Shown here: positions 2,967 to 51,695 of the stretch, one piece after another
Layout of the letters: the number at the start of each line of letters is the position of its first letter
Numbering within the stretch: position 1 is the first letter of the stretch
NCBI GenBank assembly: GCA_046292385.1
Contig: JBKBRF010000010.1
Span: forward strand, 32,001 to 96,000
Reading direction: 5' to 3'
Length of the DNA stretch: 64,000 bases
Source of the DNA: Armatimonadota bacterium
GTDB lineage: Bacteria > Armatimonadota > SYMT01
Program-made: the position numbers and the translations under genes
The notes under the pieces: model-generated
Seen by the model: the letters and a program-made list of their open reading frames with translations, nothing else
What the model was told of the DNA's origin: nothing
Databases searched by the model: none

Positions 2967-5455
<2,489 letters not shown>

Positions 5456-6271: not shown

Positions 6272-6571
6272 ATGCAGTTCACCTTCAGCGGCGAGATCTG
6301 GTACTGGCGCGGGCCCTCCCCGTTTCACTTCGTGACGGTCCCGCCGGAGGAGTGCCGCGAGCTGAAGGCGCTCTCCGGGCTGGTCACCTACGGCTGGGGC
6401 ATGATCCCGGTGACCGCCCGGGTCGGCGCGACGGTCTGGAAGACCTCGCTCTTTCCGAAAGACGGGAGCTACATCGTGCCGCTCAAGGACAGCGTGCGGA
6501 GCGCGAACGGGTTGGAGCCGGGCGACCCGGTGACGGTGCAGCTCGAGCTCCGGCGCAGCGCCCGCAAGTAG
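6272..6571 (+). CDS. DUF1905-domain protein
   Basis: MQFTFSGEIWYWRGPSPFHFV...WKTSLFPKDGSYIVPLK. Confidence 0.8.
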   Translation: MQFTFSGEIWYWRGPSPFHFVTVPPEECRELKALSGLVTYGWGMIPVTARVGATVWKTSLFPKDGSYIVPLKDSVRSANGLEPGDPVTVQLELRRSARK

Positions 6572-6632
6572 TCTTCCAGGGTGCGCACGGATCGGGCCGC
6601 GATCGCGAGGTCGGACACGGCGGCTCCCCCGG

Positions 6633-9067: not shown

Positions 9068-11017
9068 ATGCGGATCTGGAGCTGGGTGTTGCTGACCGCG
9101 GCGGTGGGGGTACTTTCTGCCGCGGCGGGCGGGGCGCAGGAATCGCCGGAGCGGAAGGCGGCTCATCCGCTCGACCCGCTCACCGCGGGCGAGATCCGGG
9201 AGGCGTTCCGGGTGCTGAAGGCCGATCCGCGCGTGCCGAAGGGGGCGTTCTTCCCCACGCTGCTGCTGCAGGAGCCTCCGAAGGAGGCGGTCCTCGACTG
9301 GCGCGAAGGGCGGCCCCTGCTGCGCCGGGCCTACGCGGAGATCTTCGACCGCCCAGGCAACCGGGCGTTCGAGGCCGTGGTCGACCTCGGCTCCGGCCGG
9401 CTCGTCTCCTGGACCCCCCGCCCCGGCATCCAGCCCACCACGTTCGCGGACGAGTACGAGGCGATCCCCCCGCTGGTCCGGGCCGATCCCCGCTGGCAGG
9501 CGGCGATGAAGAAGCGGGGCATCGACGACCTGGAAGCGGTGCACCTGGAGCCGTGGGCCGGCGGCGACGAGCCGGTGCCAGGCGTGCCGAAGGAGACGCG
9601 CCTGTTCCGGGTGCTCTCCTTTTACCGGGGCGATCTCCCCAACCCGTATGTCCGCCCGATCGAGGGCGTCGTCGTCGCGGTCGACGCGAACCGTCTCCGC
9701 GTGGTCGAGGTGACCGACACCGACGTCGCCCCGGTCGTGCGGGAGACCGGCAGCGCGGACGCCGACGCGTCCACCCGGCCGCCGCTGAAGCCGCTGCGGG
9801 TCTCCCAGCCGGACGGGCCCGGGTTCACGGTGCGCGGCGGCGAGGTGCGGTGGCAGAACTGGCGCTTCCACTGCTCCCTGCACCCGCGCGACGGCCTGGT
9901 GCTGCACACCGTCGGCTACGAGGACGGCGGGCAGGTCCGGCCGATCCTCTACCGCGCCGCCCTGAGCGAGGTGTCGGTGCCGTACGGACTGCCGAACCGG
10001 AACTGGGCCTGGCGCCGCGCGTTCGACCTGGGCGAGTACGGCTTCGGCCGCTACGCCAGCCGCCTGCAGGCCGGCGTCGATGTGCCGGAGAACGCGGTGC
10101 TGCTCGACAACGTGCTGGCGGACGATACCGGCGACGTGACCGAAGCTCCCGCCACGATCGGCATCTACGAGCGGTACGGCGGCCTGCTCTGGAAGCGGGT
10201 CGATCCCGAAAGCGGCGAGCCGGAGGCGCGGCCCGCCCGCCAGCTCGTGGTGACGAGCAACGCCTGGATCGGCAACTACGTCTACGGCGTGAGCTGGATC
10301 TTCCAGCAGGACGGCTCCATCAACGTGGAGGTGGAACTGACCGGCACGATGCTGCTCCGCGGCGTGGCGAACCCGCGGCAGGGCTCCGAGTACGGAACGC
10401 TGGTGGCGCCCAACCTCTCCGCGCCGTTCCACCAGCACTTCTTTAACTTCCGCCTCGACTTCGACATCGACGGCCGCGCCAACTCCGTGATGGAGATGGA
10501 CGTCACCTCGGATTCGCGCAGTCCGAACGGGATCCGCATGAAGGAGACGATGCTCCGCAGCGAGCGCGGCGCGCGGCGCGACCTGAACCTGAAGCGGGCG
10601 CGGATGTGGAAAGTCGCCAACGCGGAAGGCGGCGGGATGGAAAGCCGGCCGGGCTACTTCCTGATGCCCCACGGCGGCGCCGTGCCGTACGGAGCGCCGC
10701 GCCTGCGGGCCCGCGCCGCCTTCGCGGACCACGCACTCTGGGTGACCGCGTTTGAAGAATCGGAGCGGTACGCGGCCGGCGCCTACCCGTACCAGGGCCG
10801 CAGCGGCGAGGGACTGCCGGCGTGGATCGCCGACAACCAGTCGCTGGAGCACCAGGACGTGGTGCTCTGGTACACCGTCGGCGTTACCCACATTCCCACC
10901 CCGGAGCAGCACCCGGTGATGAGCGTGGACCGGGCCGGCTTCCGCCTGATGCCGGGCGGGTTCTTCACCCGCAACCCGGCGCTCGACGTGCCACCCGCAC
11001 AGGTCGGTGGCGACTGA
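9068..11017 (+). CDS. Secreted copper-containing primary amine oxidase
   Basis: Signal peptide, HPLDPL, AFDLGEYG (catalytic Asp), GNYVY (TPQ Tyr), HQH and THIP copper ligands. Confidence 0.9.
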   Translation: MRIWSWVLLTAAVGVLSAAAGGAQESPERKAAHPLDPLTAGEIREAFRVLKADPRVPKGAFFPTLLLQEPPKEAVLDWREGRPLLRRAYAEIFDRPGNRAFEAVVDLGSGRLVSWTPRPGIQPTTFADEYEAIPPLVRADPRWQAAMKKRGIDDLEAVHLEPWAGGDEPVPGVPKETRLFRVLSFYRGDLPNPYVRPIEGVVVAVDANRLRVVEVTDTDVAPVVRETGSADADASTRPPLKPLRVSQPDGPGFTVRGGEVRWQNWRFHCSLHPRDGLVLHTVGYEDGGQVRPILYRAALSEVSVPYGLPNRNWAWRRAFDLGEYGFGRYASRLQAGVDVPENAVLLDNVLADDTGDVTEAPATIGIYERYGGLLWKRVDPESGEPEARPARQLVVTSNAWIGNYVYGVSWIFQQDGSINVEVELTGTMLLRGVANPRQGSEYGTLVAPNLSAPFHQHFFNFRLDFDIDGRANSVMEMDVTSDSRSPNGIRMKETMLRSERGARRDLNLKRARMWKVANAEGGGMESRPGYFLMPHGGAVPYGAPRLRARAAFADHALWVTAFEESERYAAGAYPYQGRSGEGLPAWIADNQSLEHQDVVLWYTVGVTHIPTPEQHPVMSVDRAGFRLMPGGFFTRNPALDVPPAQVGGD

Positions 11018-11115
11018 CCGCCGGCCAACGGCGAGCCGCCGCCGAACCCGCTCGCACCCCCGGCTTCCCGATCGATCTGGAGTTTCCAGTATCATAGGAG
11101 AGAGGTGCGGTGCCG

Positions 11116-11406
11116 ATGAGCCTGACGATCGAACTCAGCCCCGAAGAACAAGCTCGGCTGGCGGATGCCGCCAGCCGAGAAGGGCTCGCCCCGGAGGAGC
11201 TCGCACGGAAGCTCCTCTGCGAACACCTGGCCCCGGCAGCGGAAGGATCGCCTCCGGACGATCCGACGCTGGCACTCTTTCGGCAGTGGGAGGCCGAAGG
11301 CGCCGCACGTACCGCGGATGAAGCACGCGGGGAAAACGAGCTCTGGGAGCAATTCCAGACGAACGTCAACGAGACTCGCGCAGCGCTGGGGATGAGGAAG
11401 CTCTAA
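11116..11406 (+). CDS. Putative antitoxin upstream of a PIN toxin
   Basis: MSLTIELSPEEQARL...EGLAPEELAR RHH-like start; 3 nt before the PIN gene. Confidence 0.65.
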   Translation: MSLTIELSPEEQARLADAASREGLAPEELARKLLCEHLAPAAEGSPPDDPTLALFRQWEAEGAARTADEARGENELWEQFQTNVNETRAALGMRKL

Positions 11407-11409
11407 CTC

Positions 11410-12279
11410 GTGCAGCGGGTCATCGTTCTCGACACCTTCCCCCTCAGCAGCACCGGCAAGCTCAGCCCACCGGCTTCCGTCGTGCCGACCGCCCTCGACC
11501 TTTGCCATCGTTGGGTCCGGGATTGCGTGGCAGCGGGACATCGGGTCGTAGCTCCGGCCATCTCCTACACTACTCACCGTGAGATTCTTGTCGGGATGCG
11601 CAGATTCTCCCCGGGGTGTGCTCCTAGGGAGCCCGGAAGCGCTGCCGGAGGCAGGGCGGGAGGGCTTCACCTGTGACCACCCCTGCGAGGGGTGGTCGCT
11701 TGAGCCGCCCGGAGCGGCCCGTGAACCGTCACCTCGCCGCGGACGCCCCACTCGGACGCGGAACGTAGGGCGTCGGGGAACTCGCCCGCAGCGCCCGCTA
11801 GCGGAGGCGAAGCCGGAGCGTGAAAGGGCCGCGGAGGGCCACCCACGCGGGAGGGCCGCTCCGGGTGGGGAGGGCGCGGGGTGGAACCCCGGAGCGATGA
11901 CGGTCTCGCCGAGAGAGTTTCTCTCCCGCCGTCTTGAGTTTGGCTGCGGCGTCAGCCGCGCTGTGATGTCGTGCGTGAGCTGGAGCGTCTCAACGCTACC
12001 GCGCAGATTACGCGTCTCCGCGCGTTCTGCCACGCCGATCCGGACCGCTACCTCTCACTCACGGACGCAGACCTCGAACACGCTGCCAAACTCTGGGGAC
12101 AGGCGCGGAATGCCGGCACGCCCACGGCCAGCCTTGAGGCCCTGGACGGCGACGTGATCCTCGCCGCTCAAGCACTGTCGCTCCAGGTACCGGTCGAGCG
12201 CCTGGTGATCGCTACAACCAACGTGGCCCACCTCTCCCGCTTCGCGCCCGCGGACCTCTGGACGAACATCGACCCGTGA
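11410..12279 (+). pseudogene. PIN-domain (VapC-like) toxin interrupted by a 396-bp insertion
   Basis: 5' part VIVLDT...RVVAPAISY; 3' part VVRELERL...LDGDVILAAQA...IATTNVAHL; joining 11567 to 11964 gives an in-frame 157-codon ORF. Confidence 0.85.
11568..11963. mobile_element. Non-autonomous hairpin-rich element, copy 1 (396 bp)
   Basis: Ends CACTACTCACCG / TCAGCCGCGCTG shared with 40540-41356; disrupts the PIN ORF; no transposase. Confidence 0.8.
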
Positions 12280-12385
12280 ACCTGAGAGTTCCGGGCGGGA
12301 AGTCACGGAGCCCGATACGCCCGCAGCCGCGCCCGGTGATCGGACGCGGCTGCGTGGTGCGGTATGCGGTTGCCGGCAGGGGCGG

Positions 12386-13708
12386 TTAGCCCTTCCGCAT
12401 CTCCAGGCCGCGCATGGTGCCGGTGCTGGTGGCGAAGCGGTCCGCCTCCAGGCCGAAGCGCTGGAGGATGTTCACGAAGAGGTTCGGCAGCGGGTAGTTG
12501 CGCTCCCGGTCGAAGGCGAGGTGCTGGCCGTGCCGGAAGCCGCCGCCCGCGAAGAGGACCGGCAGGTTGGTGGTGACGTGCCTGTTGGCGTCGCCCATGT
12601 TGCTGCCGTAGAGGACCATCGTGCGGTCGAGCAGCGTCTCCCCGCCTTCCGGAGTCGACTTCAGGTCCGCGAAGAGCCCCGCGAGGAGCTTCATGTGCTC
12701 CGTGTCGATCTGCTCCAGCTCCGCCAGCTTCTGCGGGTTGCGGCCGTGGTGGGAGAGGTTGTGGTAGCCGTCCGAGACGGTCTTGCCGTCCACCACGATG
12801 GCGGGCGAGGCGACCCCGTCGAGCATCAGCGTGATATTGCGGGTCGAGTCGGTGGCGAAGGCGAGGTGCGCCAGGTCGTAGATCAGCCGCACCTTCTCCA
12901 TGTACTCGCGGGAGCTCGGCGGGTCGACCGGCGGCGGCACGTTCACCACCGGGCGCGGCTTCTTCTCCCACTCGGCCGACTGCACCAGCCGCTTCTCCAG
13001 CTCGCGCACGCCGGTGAAGTACTGGTCCAGCCGCTCGCGGTCCCGCGCGCCGACGGTGCTCTGCAGCCGCTTCGTCTGGTCCGCCACGCTGTCCATCACG
13101 CTCTTGCCGAGCGCCAGCCGGCGGGACTGCGCCTTGATCTCCTCCGGAGAGCCGCCGAGGAAGAGCTTCTTGAAGACCGCGGTGGCGCTCGTCTCGCACG
13201 GCAGCACCACGCCGCCCGCGGTGCAGGAGAGGCTGTTGCGCGCGCCGCGGGCGTTGACGCCGAGGGTGAGGGAGGGGAAGCGGGTCAGGTGGCCGATCCG
13301 CTCCGCCACGTACTGGTCGAGCGAGATCGTGTTCCGGAAGTTGCTGCTCGCCGGGTGGGGCGCAGCGGTGAGGAAGCAGACGTCCGCCGGGTGGCCGCCG
13401 TCCACGTCCGGGTGCCACACGCCGCTGAAGACGGTGAAGTCGGAGCGGAAGTCGCGCAGGTGCTCCAGGTAGGGAGAGAGCGCGTAGCCCTGCCCGGTCG
13501 AGTCGGCCGCCGGGAAGAACCGGTCCGGCAGCACGCCAAGGTTGTTGCAGATGCCGAAGAACCGGCGCGGCGCCTCCGCGGCGGTCTCCGCGCGGGCAAA
13601 GGCGGGCGACATCGCCTCCAGGAGCGGCAGGCCCAGAAGGACCCCGGCTCCCCGCAGGAAGTGACGCCGGGAGAGTGCGCTCGGCGTGCAGGCGTGTACA
13701 CGTTTCAT
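12386..13708 (-). CDS. DUF1552-domain protein with twin-arginine-like leader
   Basis: [47 protein letters not shown]. Confidence 0.85.
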
Positions 13709-32633: not shown

Positions 32634-32774
32634 GTCTCTGCTCCGAAGAATAGGTCGCCGGCGCGCCGGACCGCCGGCTTTCTGACCGGAGGCGGGCGGA
32701 GAACGCGGGCGAATAACGAGAGCTCTACGTGCGGGCCTCAATTGCTTGCCGCAGCGCAGCGTCGGTTCCGCGGA

Positions 32775-32992
32775 TCCGCCCCCGCGCCCTAGTCGGCCGA
32801 TCCACCGCGTGTGTGGCCCTCCCTCAGCCCTTTCACACTCCGCTTCGCTCCGTTAGCGGGCTGGTCCGGGCGTGCAGCCCGGTTCGCTTGTCCCCGCGTT
32901 CGAAAACTGCGTCTCTGACGTGGTGGCGGTTCACGGGCTGAATCGGCCGCCGTCGAGCGACCACCCCCGTCGCCCGGGGGTGGTCACAAGTG
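32775..32992. repeat. Diverged copy of the internal module of the 11568/40540 element, without recognisable ends
   Basis: CCTTTCACACTCCG...GGTTCACGGGC...GCGACCACCCC..GGGGTGGTCACAAGTG. Confidence 0.7.
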
Positions 32993-33167
32993 CTGTCCTC
33001 CGGCGCAGCCTTCGGCTGCCCCTCCGGACGCCCCGGGTGCGAGCTACGCCAAGCCCGGGAGCCTGGAGACCAAGCCGAAGGCTGCGGCAGGCATCGGCAG
33101 TCGCCGCCGGACAGTGCACACGCCGCGGCGCACGCGTGGGACATGCGCCGCGGCTCGTGCGACTGGC

Positions 33168-40510: not shown

Positions 40511-40539
40511 GACCTATTCTTTTTCGACACAGAGGGACA

Positions 40540-41356
40540 CAGCGCGGCTGATGCCGCAACCAAACTCGAGGCGGCGGAGGAATGCTCGGTTAGTCGAGAC
40601 CGTCATCGCTCCGGGAGTCCACCCCGCGCCCTCCCCACCCGGAGCGGCCCTCCCGCGTGGGTGGCCCTCCGCGGCTCCCCCGTTCGGGGGACAAGCCTTT
40701 CACGCTCCGGCCTCCCCTCCGCTAGCGGGCGCTCCGGGCGTGCTCCCCGGCGCGCTGCGTTCCGCGTCCAAGAGGGGCGTCTGCAGCGAGACGACGGTTC
40801 ACGGGCCGCTCCAGGCGGCTCAAGCGACCACCCCTCGCAGGGGTGGTCACAAGTGAACCCCTCCAGCCCTGCCTCCGGCAGTGCTTCCGAGCTTCGTAGA
40901 TCTCCACGCCCTGGGGGCGCAAAGCTGGTCGTGCTGCACCGGCTCGAGGCAACCCGTCGGCTGCCGACCGTGCCCAGACCGAAGGCGCCCGCAGGGCGCC
41001 AGTTGTGACCACCCCTGGGCGCAGGGGTGGTAGCTCGAAGAGTCGGGAGGCAGCCCGTGAGCTCCCCTGTCGACGCGGTAACGCTTCCTGGCGCGGGAAG
41101 AGCTACACGGGGCGGACTCCCGCAGCGGCCTGCTAACGGAGCGCAGCGGAGTGTGAAAAGGCCGCGGAGGGCCTTCGTCGCGGGAGGGCTGCCTCCCGGC
41201 ACAAGGGCTCGGGGTCGGGTTACGGGATCGAGGCTGCAGCTCGAAGAGAAGCAAAAACACCACACAACTGGCACCCTCCGGCTCCGCGAGGCCCAGGCGC
41301 GCGATGCCCGCCAGCAAAACCTGCGCATCCCGGCCAGATTCCCGCGGTGAGTAGTG
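40540..41356. mobile_element. Non-autonomous hairpin-rich element, copy 2 (817 bp, opposite orientation, extra inverted internal module)
   Basis: Ends CAGCGCGGCTGA / CGGTGAGTAGTG; splits a repeat whose intact twin is at 41523-41568. Confidence 0.8.
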
Positions 41357-41513
41357 CAGAAGGACCAACAGAGGGAACACAGATCCGGACAGAATTGGGC
41401 CGTCTTCGCGCCCATCCCCAGTCATCCTGAACGAAGGTGAAGGATCTCGGCAGCCGCGCTGAGTAGGGCCTCGTGCTCCCACCCGGGGACCGCCAAACGA
41501 GCGAGCCCCAGCG

Positions 41514-43121
41514 TCAATCCTTTCTGTGCTCCTCTGTCGGTTCTTCTGTGTCCCTCTGTGTCGAAAAACCAAGAGCCGACCGGAGCTTCCAGACCTCCAT
41601 CCGGACCAGCCGCGCCTCCCCACCCCGCGAGTAGACGGAGATCCCCTGGCTCTCCGGGCGGGGGAAGATCAGCTCCGAGAGCACCGTCTCGCCGTCGTTG
41701 CCGAAGACCTCCACGGAGGAGCGGTCGACGAAGAGGTGCAGCTTCACGCGGCGGCCCCGGAGCGGCATCGGACCGCCGCTGCGGCCGGCGAAGCCCTGGT
41801 TGAAGTCGCTCTTTCCGGAGCGGGTGCGGTCGACGAAGAGCTGCTTCGTTCCCGCGTCGTAGCCGACCCGCGTCTCCTCGCCCTCGCCGGCCCGCACGGT
41901 GAGCCCGACTTCCGCTGCGCCGCCCAGCTCGAGCTCCGCCACGATCTCCACGGCGTCGCCCCACGCGGATCGGTCGAGCACGAGCGGCTTCTCCGGGGTG
42001 AGCCCAGTGGAGCGGACGGTGTGCTTCTCCCCGCGGAGCGAGCGGAGCTGCGGCACCGGCTCCTGCACCATGCGCAGGCCCTCCGGCGTGCGGCGGAGCT
42101 TCAGGGCACGCGGCAGGGTGAGCACGTTGCGCCAGGGGTGGGTCGGCACGTCGTTGGCGTACTGCCAGTTGCTCATCCAGCCGATCCAGTAGCGCTCGCC
42201 CCGCTTGCCGGTGATCCCGGACCAGGAGACCGCCGCGTAGTTGTCGCGACCGTAGTCGGCCCAGAGGATCGTGGAAGGCGGGTTGTCGTTCCGGAACGTC
42301 GTGCCGTCGAACTCGCCGATGAAGTACTCCCCGCCGGAGCCGCCGTTCACGTGGCCGTTGCCCATCCCCACGTGGAGCACCCACTTGCTCTTCCCGGGCT
42401 CCCCCTCGATCGGGAGCGGGAAGAGGTCCGGGCACTCCCAGTTCGCCTTCACCGTGTCCGGCACGCCCGCCGGACCGAACTCGCTCAGCAACTCCCAGCG
42501 CTTCAGATCGGGCGAGCCGTAGAAGCGCAGGCGACGGTCCGCCGCCTTCACCACCGCCATCACCCAGCGGCGGGTCGGCGCGTGCCAGAAGACCTTCGGG
42601 TCGCGGAAGTCTTTCTCCCACGGGATTACCGGGTTGCCCGCGTACTTCGTCCAGGTGCGGCCGTTATCCAGGCTGTACGCCAGGCACTGGCTCTGCATCT
42701 CGTCCGCCGGCCGGTGCCCGGTGTAGATGGCGACCATCGGCGGGTTCTCCTTCGTGCCGAACCCGCTGGTGTTCCGCTCGTCCACCACCGCGGAGCCGGA
42801 GAAGATCATCACGCCGTCCGCCTCCTGCAGCGCCACGGGCAGGTGCTCCCAGTGGACCAGGTCCCGGCTCACCGCGTGCCCCCAGCTCATGTGGCCCCAC
42901 TGGTTGCCGAACGGGTTGTACTGGTGGAACAGGTGGTACTCGCCGCGGTGGTAGACCAGCCCGTTCGGGTCGTTCATGAAGTTGCGGACCGGGCTGTAGT
43001 GGTAGCGCGGCCGGTAGGTCTCCCGCATCAGCGGCTCCGCGCCCGGCTCGGCGGGCTGCCCCAGCGAGGCAGCCTGGCACAGGCAACCGAGCAGCAGTCC
43101 CAGGGCGATTATCTTCAACAC
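41514..43121 (-). CDS. GH32 glycoside hydrolase (levanase/beta-fructosidase)
   Basis: FMNDPNG, WGHA, FSGS, FRDP, WECP motifs; GTG start at 43121 with signal peptide. Confidence 0.92.
   Translation of the reverse strand: MLKIIALGLLLGCLCQAASLGQPAEPGAEPLMRETYRPRYHYSPVRNFMNDPNGLVYHRGEYHLFHQYNPFGNQWGHMSWGHAVSRDLVHWEHLPVALQEADGVMIFSGSAVVDERNTSGFGTKENPPMVAIYTGHRPADEMQSQCLAYSLDNGRTWTKYAGNPVIPWEKDFRDPKVFWHAPTRRWVMAVVKAADRRLRFYGSPDLKRWELLSEFGPAGVPDTVKANWECPDLFPLPIEGEPGKSKWVLHVGMGNGHVNGGSGGEYFIGEFDGTTFRNDNPPSTILWADYGRDNYAAVSWSGITGKRGERYWIGWMSNWQYANDVPTHPWRNVLTLPRALKLRRTPEGLRMVQEPVPQLRSLRGEKHTVRSTGLTPEKPLVLDRSAWGDAVEIVAELELGGAAEVGLTVRAGEGEETRVGYDAGTKQLFVDRTRSGKSDFNQGFAGRSGGPMPLRGRRVKLHLFVDRSSVEVFGNDGETVLSELIFPRPESQGISVYSRGGEARLVRMEVWKLRSALGFSTQRDTEEPTEEHRKD
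41523..41568. repeat. ACACAGAGG-type repeat, intact inverted partner of the split copy (40520-40539 + 41357-41383)
   Basis: Reverse complement TTTTTCGACACAGAGGGACACAGAAGAACCGACAGAGGAGCACAGA. Confidence 0.75.
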
Positions 43122-51490: not shown

Positions 51491-51695
51491 TCCGAACGAA
51501 CGGGAAGGCGCGAACAAAGGGGAGGACGCGAAGCTCGGATGGGGAAGCGGTGGCCCGCGCGCGAGTGAACTCGGCGCTACACAAAGCGAAGCCCGCCTGC
51601 GCGGGCTGGGAACCCGGTACCCGACGCTCCTCAGTTCCCCGGTCAGGTTCCCTTCGCGTCCTTCGCGTGACTTCGCGCCTTCGCGTTCGTTCGGA
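51491..51695. repeat. Nested repeat: inverted CTTCGCG-type arms enclosing a REP hairpin
   Basis: TCCGAACGAACGGGAAGGCGCGAA at 51491 pairs with TTCGCGCCTTCGCGTTCGTTCGGA near 51695. Confidence 0.65.

Follow-up and report, generated by a model that had tools for sequence, protein, structure and literature searches.

The results presented here confirm that a segment interrupting a PIN-like gene in an Armatimonadota genome is a real gene-less mobile element, built around a large, undescribed RNA-like fold. The DNA analysed, referred to as the window, is a stretch of 64,000 nt (G000:C10:32001-96000) from genome G000, whose assembly comprises 7.04 Mb in 91 contigs and is 98.45% complete. The original prediction of a non-coding, non-autonomous and mobile element is supported by sharp ends, unrelated flanks and the absence of a conserved ORF. 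The element may be moved in trans by conservative site-specific recombination, with an IS110/IS1111-type enzyme as the likeliest supplier.

Copy 1 occupies positions 11568-11963 on the plus strand, exactly where it had been placed, and is recognized by BLAST and end alignments as the short form (396 bp), which consists of a left tail, one type-A core and a right tail. It begins CACTACTCACCG and finishes TCAGCCGCGCTG, and its nearest other copy is 89% identical. The left end and tail (11568-11622, plus strand, from the alignment of 27 left ends) open with the terminus (C/T)ACTACTCACCG, followed in most copies by a subterminal hairpin, GAGAATCT ... AGATTCTC. The structured core is read on the plus strand at 11620-11900 (alignments A1 and A2, below), and the right tail (11900-11963, plus strand, from the alignment of 26 right ends) holds a 3' hairpin, a small hairpin GCGGC-NNNN-GCCGC and the terminal GCTG. 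Copy 2, at 40540-41356 on the minus strand, is bounded by the two ends of copy 1 in reverse complement, also as predicted. Sequence and nhmmer matches identify it as a long form of 817 bp, in which a left tail, an inverted type-B core, a spacer, a type-A core and a right tail follow one another. Its type-A core and right tail lie at 40540-40899 (minus strand; nhmmer match C10:72540-72899, profile positions 57-396) and its type-B core, head-to-head with the A core, at 40992-41216 (plus strand; nhmmer match C10:72992-73216). The family has a third core in the window, solitary and lacking the conserved ends, at 32766-33039 (minus strand; nhmmer match C10:64766-65039, profile positions 54-327). 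Elsewhere in the window, a single Rfam match to CRISPR-DR28 at 51585-51608 (35.4 bits, E 0.012, just above threshold) is a solitary GC-rich hairpin, with no array in the search.

Copy 1 divides a toxin-like gene. Homologue alignment delimits an N-terminal half of 53 aa (11410-11567, plus strand) and a C-terminal half of 104 aa (11964-12279, plus strand), and the two halves adjoin in a single ORF in seven of seven homologous loci of other Armatimonadota. The claim that copy 1 splits a PIN ORF is upheld by this contiguity, with an amendment to the restoration by exact removal: the window has ...Y|D... at a point where ...Y-[Y/F]-E... stands in each of the seven homologues. These have an additional Tyr/Phe at the junction, and the ORF obtained by exact excision of copy 1 is shorter by this residue, through a loss of three bases or because the lineage was already shorter there. 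Neither half alone has a Pfam match, and three intact homologues score as PIN at 21-23 bits across the junction, just under the cut-off of 23.6. A 98-aa ORF at 11110-11406, with a weak NikA-like match (E 0.08), stops three bases before the start codon of the split gene and is probably its antitoxin partner.

The second insertion interrupts one of two mutually inverted arms of short tandem repeats. Flank comparison places the outer part of the interrupted target arm at 40518-40539, its inner part at 41357-41384 and the intact partner arm, which stands in for the empty site, at 41521-41568. Removal of copy 2 restores the repeat as predicted, the joined flanks matching the intact arm as well as 33 such arms in the genome, which a search with the arm word found mostly as inverted pairs. 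About seven right flanks enter arms of 8-9-nt tandem units (...TCTGTGTCCCTCTGTGTCGAAA), arrays of AACCTG-type heptamers hold three insertions, and the other insertions lie in unrelated DNA with the same target word each time. Of the two things suggested as checks, an empty site was not seen in the contigs, as distinct from reads, of three soil metagenomes, and a circle junction was not seen in the assembly. The locus is present at 2-6x in these metagenomes, where one 228-nt contig (run X3) spans the right junction and no joint skipping the element occurs among the contigs on 10800-12800. A search of the assembly for a circle junction gave nothing beyond one chance match.

The ends of the element are conserved, asymmetric and sharply bounded. 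Profiles of the ends gave 30 hits per end in the 7.04-Mb genome, from which 27 left ends were used (two were discarded with E>0.1 and one without terminal bases) together with 26 right ends (one was discarded with E 0.34 and three without the terminus). The two ends co-occur at about 25 further loci, with flanks that are unrelated from copy to copy and boundaries that are sharp to the base; the outcome named beforehand as contradicting the element, ends that do not co-occur with sharp boundaries, was not observed. The left flank is CTG in 22 of 27 cases and TG follows the right end in 25 of 26, against a genome background for CTG of ~0.02 per position. Position by position, the flanks carry T at -4 (20/27), C at -3 (25/27), T at -2 (26/27), G at -1 (24/27), T at +1 (25/26), G at +2 (26/26) and either T or A at +3 (15 and 7 of 26). 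The target word is TCTG|TG, and insertion is in one orientation. The element starts (T/C)ACTAC and, in 21 of 26 copies, terminates in CTG. The target TCTG|TG and the joined ends GCTG|TA have CTGT in common, so the join can be placed anywhere within four bases, and the alternative junction reading, a short core with a CTGTG-type target, is recovered from the flank counts as a CTG/CTGT core within TCTG|TG.

The repetition of CTG on both sides is not a target duplication. In nine elements with both ends known, the left-flank triplet differs from the terminal triplet; flanks vary to CTA, TTG or ACG and termini to CTC, CTT, CCG or TGG, with no matching non-CTG pair. This independent variation agrees with the predicted lack of duplication and rules out a 3-bp duplication of the DDE kind. 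A DDE-type MITE was rejected as well, because the ends are unrelated to each other and the CTG of the flank varies independently of the terminal one. As predicted, the element also lacks long terminal inverted repeats; the two ends share only the 5-nt ACTCA/TGAGT, located 4 and 24 nt from the ends, and each has a subterminal hairpin. A group I or group II intron was discarded for want of an Rfam match and for boundary bases that do not fit general splice-site rules. That bases are conserved to the left as well as to the right of the join speaks for recognition of the DNA as a duplex around a crossover.

The ended copies are a subfamily of a much larger population of cores. Copy 1 has 67 BLAST matches in the genome, and a profile of seven short copies produced 163 hits at 119 loci, 126 of these hits spanning most of the central core; the ~126 cores far outnumber the ended subfamily. 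The long form measures ~790-820 bp, with a spacer of ~90 bp and a type-B core that is inverted, diverged and ~70% identical to A. As read from the alignments, the left tail is the inverted tail of the B core and is homologous to part of the A tail. Shortened forms of 544, 608 and 637 bp have kept both ends and lost inner parts. Wherever two inverted cores adjoin in the genome, 25 cases in all, they are arranged head-to-head. The conserved termini are missing from many pairs and from about 85 single cores, and alignment revealed no definable ends for the pairs without conserved ends or for those of the related genome G005. On contig C40 (13661-39991), eight minus-strand cores lie between genes along 26 kb, at intervals of 1.4-5.9 kb. 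Nearest-neighbour identity among 25 ended copies is 81-96%, so the activity may be old; the assembly contains no identical copies, but copies that are nearly identical would have been collapsed in it. None of the 12 long copies contains a conserved ORF or a DEDD recombinase gene, in keeping with the prediction of an element without a transposase.

The body of the element is an RNA-like fold of ~280-330 nt with strong covariation over four genomes of one family. Alignment A1, of 41 cores from G000, has 46 consensus pairs, 15 of which have changed on both sides. Alignment A2 combines 34 cores (18 from G000, 11 from a related MAG and five from metagenome contigs) in a 69-pair structure, and here both sides have changed in 40 pairs. 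The proportion of paired cells in A2 is 87.0%, compared with 75.2% in shuffled alignments (0 of 500 reach the observed value) and 37-46% when the structure is slid by 1-3 columns; the covariation score is 0.329, compared with 0.139 and 0.075-0.094, respectively. G-U/U-G cells number 211 against 55 A-C/C-A cells, and one U-G pair is retained in 33 of 34 sequences. The excess of G-U over A-C and the retained U-G pair indicate that the fold belongs to the left-to-right strand of the A core, the strand on which the structure was predicted and which that procedure favours. Some cores carry optional extra hairpins on hairpin tips, a feature common among structured RNAs. The fold is far better conserved than the tails and contains an unpaired conserved word, TTGTGA/CTGTGA, that resembles the target. 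No Rfam family matches either copy at gathering score; with E raised to 10, only three sub-threshold matches appear, all of them trivial.

A covariance model of 181 positions found the fold in four of 151 sampled genomes of the phylum, all in the family of the window (G000 and three of six others), and in none of 144 outside it. Since only 17 candidates were scored per genome, the copy numbers are lower bounds. A first exact pattern had no match in 185,579 species genomes; a looser exact pattern recovered one related MAG only, together with eight metagenome loci, four of which are real cores. The three related genomes carry the fold without the ends described here. G006 has same-strand tandem runs of cores between unrelated genes, and G005 has mostly head-to-head pairs. 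Two loci of G005 have distinctive neighbours. In G005:C2:546000-556000, same-strand cores at 3269-3479 and 6411-6621 of the stretch flank ~2.9 kb with a lower-GC3 gene for an AbiJ N-terminal domain (E 6e-43), which may be a defence-gene islet between two repeats. In G005:C3:828000-840000, two tandem cores lie between the cas6e-like gene and cas1 of a CRISPR-Cas locus, and two more lie ~4.6-5.5 kb away, beyond cas1.

How the element moves can be approached from its junctions. Two-sided conservation, a common four-base word, fixed orientation, no duplication and a taste for repeats and hairpins are marks of conservative site-specific recombination. It is tentatively proposed, by analogy and as a plausible rather than a probable account, that a non-autonomous element is moved in trans by an IS110/IS1111-type (DEDD) enzyme. 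The element is one core, or a head-to-head pair of cores, between two different tails of ~50-60 nt that would carry the mobility signals. It inserts in one orientation between TCTG and TG, and the CTGT shared by the target and the joined ends (...GCGCTG + TACTAC...) would fit excision as a circle. Recombination would be conservative and free of duplication, at the short common core, with the recombinase supplied in trans. The fold could take part in this recombination as an RNA, or could be cargo or a cis-acting signal. An IS110/IS1111-type agent is the likeliest because such elements swarm in G000 and, in Pseudomonas putida, are known to mobilise an orphan small-RNA module; the marks listed above match their behaviour.

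The swarm is seen mainly at contig ends. A 20-nt motif from the non-coding tail of an IS1111-like element occurs, always in the same orientation, at 61 of the 182 contig ends (for example C68:1-420, C76:1-460 and C16:1-600), and an assembled relative at C6:73159-76602 has subterminal inverted repeats. Beyond the shared part of the IS1111-like element the tails differ among copies, which suggests variants with different targets. Seven contig ends, C40:61400-62940 among them, share another IS right end, formed by the final part of a DEDD-type transposase gene (...CATAGAATCTCCA). On C6 the same sequence, CATAGAATCTCCA, precedes the long non-coding tail, which may point to a transposase module and an RNA module that are separate, as they are in ISPpu9. 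The shared contig ends indicate that DEDD elements are the dominant mobile DNA in G000 and that their interiors are largely missing from the assembly. Hairpins or repeats are likewise the targets of the resident IS110-family elements, whose inserts have a short word on either side. On C91 (the whole contig is 1413 bp) TCA/CA stands on each side of an IS110-type element that lies in a different repeat, ...GTCATCCTGAACG...GTGAAGGATC...CGGCAGCCGCGCTG. The last 11 bases of this repeat equal the right terminus of the IS110-type element, and the repeat also occurs within an arm pair at window positions 41415-41463.

IS1111-like elements are also found inside the structured repeat itself, with a core within 700 nt of 13 of the 61 motif-bearing contig ends. 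Of the breaks, seven fall in the long-hairpin loop (profile positions 116-122) and four at positions 281-306; in one copy the loop of the right-end hairpin is broken. The sites include C68 130-180, C76 200-240, the right end at C2:197861 and a loose end at window position 11685 (run X2).

Counting against a DEDD enzyme are the lack of a parent IS with the same ends, of IS1111-type subterminal repeats and of any guide-like match. DEDD genes (IS110 family, PF01548) were assembled at two loci, on C91 and C6, and these share no sequence with the element ends. The search for a DEDD or Y1 HUH gene between the same ends, proposed at the outset, found none: the 12 long copies contain neither, and the two DEDD and five Y1 loci have no ends or repeats in common with the family. 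The absent parent IS is weak evidence, however, because many contigs stop inside shared repeats. Seven copies have no match of at least 6 nt to the repeat-arm target, a length limit that shorter or split guides could escape, and no loop-like set of columns distinguishes the ended subfamily from the remaining cores; there is thus no sign of a guide or bridge function.

Comparison with known systems places the element near the IS110 family. The orphan ssr9 of ISPpu9, an IS110-family element of Pseudomonas putida, has IS-like end boxes and two core dinucleotides, of which the IS contributes one and the target the other; it sits in REP sequences, and circles of ssr9 alone form (PMC12288879). Orphan ssr9 resembles the present element in being a gene-less, RNA-type module with two different end boxes, in having a core word at the left flank and the right end (one from the target, one from the element), in causing no duplication and in residing in repeat or hairpin targets, ssr9 being moved in trans. 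There are three differences. The ssr9 boxes are shared with a resident transposase-bearing IS, whereas no such parent is seen here; the core word is AG in ssr9 and CTG(T) here; and the body here is ~300 nt, multi-helix and often head-to-head double, with ~100 occurrences without ends. The wider group of IS110/IS1111 elements with a bridge RNA or seekRNA shares duplication-free, oriented insertion at a short core in repeats or hairpins and a long, structured non-coding part (PMC11208160, PMC11187229). Unlike these elements, the one described here has no DEDD gene, no IS1111-type subterminal repeats and no detected match to target or donor. Bridge RNAs, at ~180 nt, are smaller than the present fold. 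IS1111 elements are described as having 11-13-bp subterminal inverted repeats with 7- and 3-nt extensions, and the peak seekRNA of 82 nt is also smaller than the fold (PMC11187229).

Movement as single-stranded DNA by a Y1 HUH enzyme, as for PATEs of the IS200/IS605 kind or for REPIN/RAYT systems, with insertion 3' of TCTG, would be a rather unlikely alternative. The subterminal hairpins, and perhaps the whole fold, would then be read as folded DNA, in which G-T wobbles are possible too, and the pair would offer an active strand on either side, as in REPINs. IS200/IS605-derived PATEs share asymmetric ends, subterminal hairpins, insertion beside a short word and the lack of duplication with the present element, which has a hairpin near each end and a fixed orientation to a 4-nt word in the left flank. 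The target here is also conserved 3' of the join, and the TG at +1/+2 in 25 of 26 right flanks would be unexpected if only the 5' word were read. Nor does the genome contain a Y1 or TnpB gene matching the element; TnpB (PF07282, PF01385) was not found at all. There are five Y1_Tnp-like genes, a point in favour of a HUH enzyme, but the two clear ones have other hairpin repeats of their own on both flanks, and none of the five loci has cores, ends or hairpin motifs of the family nearby. At C51:24420-27761, a 145-aa Y1 transposase-like gene lies between the hairpin GCGAGGGGTTGAAAACCCCTCGC and its inverse, in a RAYT/REP-like arrangement that has no relation to the element. The orientation of the element relative to local GC skew is 11 versus 14, thus without bias, in a 91-contig assembly where the skew is weak (median absolute 0.009). 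In its inverted-pair design the element is reminiscent of REPINs, which are high-copy, non-autonomous, inverted folded pairs, with singlets too, moved in trans by a putative single-copy RAYT enzyme (PMC3116915, PMC3337134). REP units are described as hairpins of ~20-40 nt (PMC3733652), whereas the unit here is a multi-helix fold of ~300 nt, the two halves of the pair resemble each other at only ~70%, and the RAYT-like genes of G000 are accompanied by other repeats.

Movement by a tyrosine or serine site-specific recombinase whose gene lies elsewhere, in the manner of Tn554 or IS607 and with CTGT or its inner bases as the overlap, is improbable. It would account for a core common to target and donor, for fixed orientation and for the lack of duplication and of inverted repeats, and the genome has 18 tyrosine-recombinase and two large serine-recombinase matches, some at contig ends with shared repeats. 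However, comparison of positions placed none of these genes near any copy, and none shares its ends. To our knowledge, there is no precedent for a non-autonomous family of ~25 copies moved by a recombinase of either type.

Doubtful to the same degree is the reading in which activity resides in the fold itself, as a new transposon RNA (guide- or bridge-like, or a ribozyme) working with an unrecognised protein, with the tails only marking the cuts. In its favour are conservation of the fold in four genomes, the changes on both sides of 40 of the 69 pairs, the near-invariant U-G pair, better conservation of the fold than of the tails and the resemblance of the unpaired TTGTGA/CTGTGA word to the target. 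A weaker point is that small contigs of one RNA library, compared with 10800-12800, touch conserved parts of the cores of relatives, and only short bits of them. Set against these points, the unpaired word is identical in cores without the present ends and so cannot set the target of the ended subfamily. No gene recurs next to the fold in the four genomes: clustering of the ORFs within 3 kb of the 119 loci returned only common families (DUF1501, pentapeptide, ABC, histidine kinase), and the neighbours of cores in the related genomes G004, G005 and G006 are unrelated. Neither a sigma-70 promoter consensus nor an intrinsic terminator is present in or beside the two copies, and the cores show no orientation bias to neighbouring genes (32 versus 28, from crude gene calls). 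Multi-copy structured RNAs such as HEARO and the IscB omega-RNA likewise combine a large conserved fold with many copies per genome and a link to mobility. The present fold differs from them in having no Rfam match and in occurring in a genome without TnpB; Y2 and IscB signatures were also absent, but the controls for both were silent, so that little weight attaches to this. A search for reverse transcriptase (PF00078), whose control was positive in three genomes, gave no candidate in the 98.45%-complete assembly, which counts against a retroelement of the group II intron or retron type. It is, on balance, a long shot that the fold is a new mobile-element RNA acting in recombination, with the head-to-head pair as its basic unit, the ended subfamily as its one lineage with recognizable ends and target, and the IS1111-like swarm in the hairpin loops as a second layer of parasites.

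It is highly improbable that the copies are not mobile and arose by segmental duplication or recombination between repeat arrays: no identical copies, empty-site allele or circle were seen, but ~25 loci with unrelated flanks, base-sharp boundaries and one target word, and a gene split where all seven homologues are continuous, already contradict it.

Finally, site-specific, non-autonomous elements that cause no duplication are rarely documented, one studied precedent being orphan ssr9 (PMC12288879). With a clean target logo, a split gene and deletion derivatives, the family makes the mechanism directly testable. The IS1111-like elements, which carry different non-coding tails and sit at different hairpins of the fold, are a natural system for the choice of safe targets by RNA-guided IS elements. 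The body of the element is a large, strongly covarying fold absent from Rfam and, if transcribed, would be a new class of structured RNA or a new transposon RNA.
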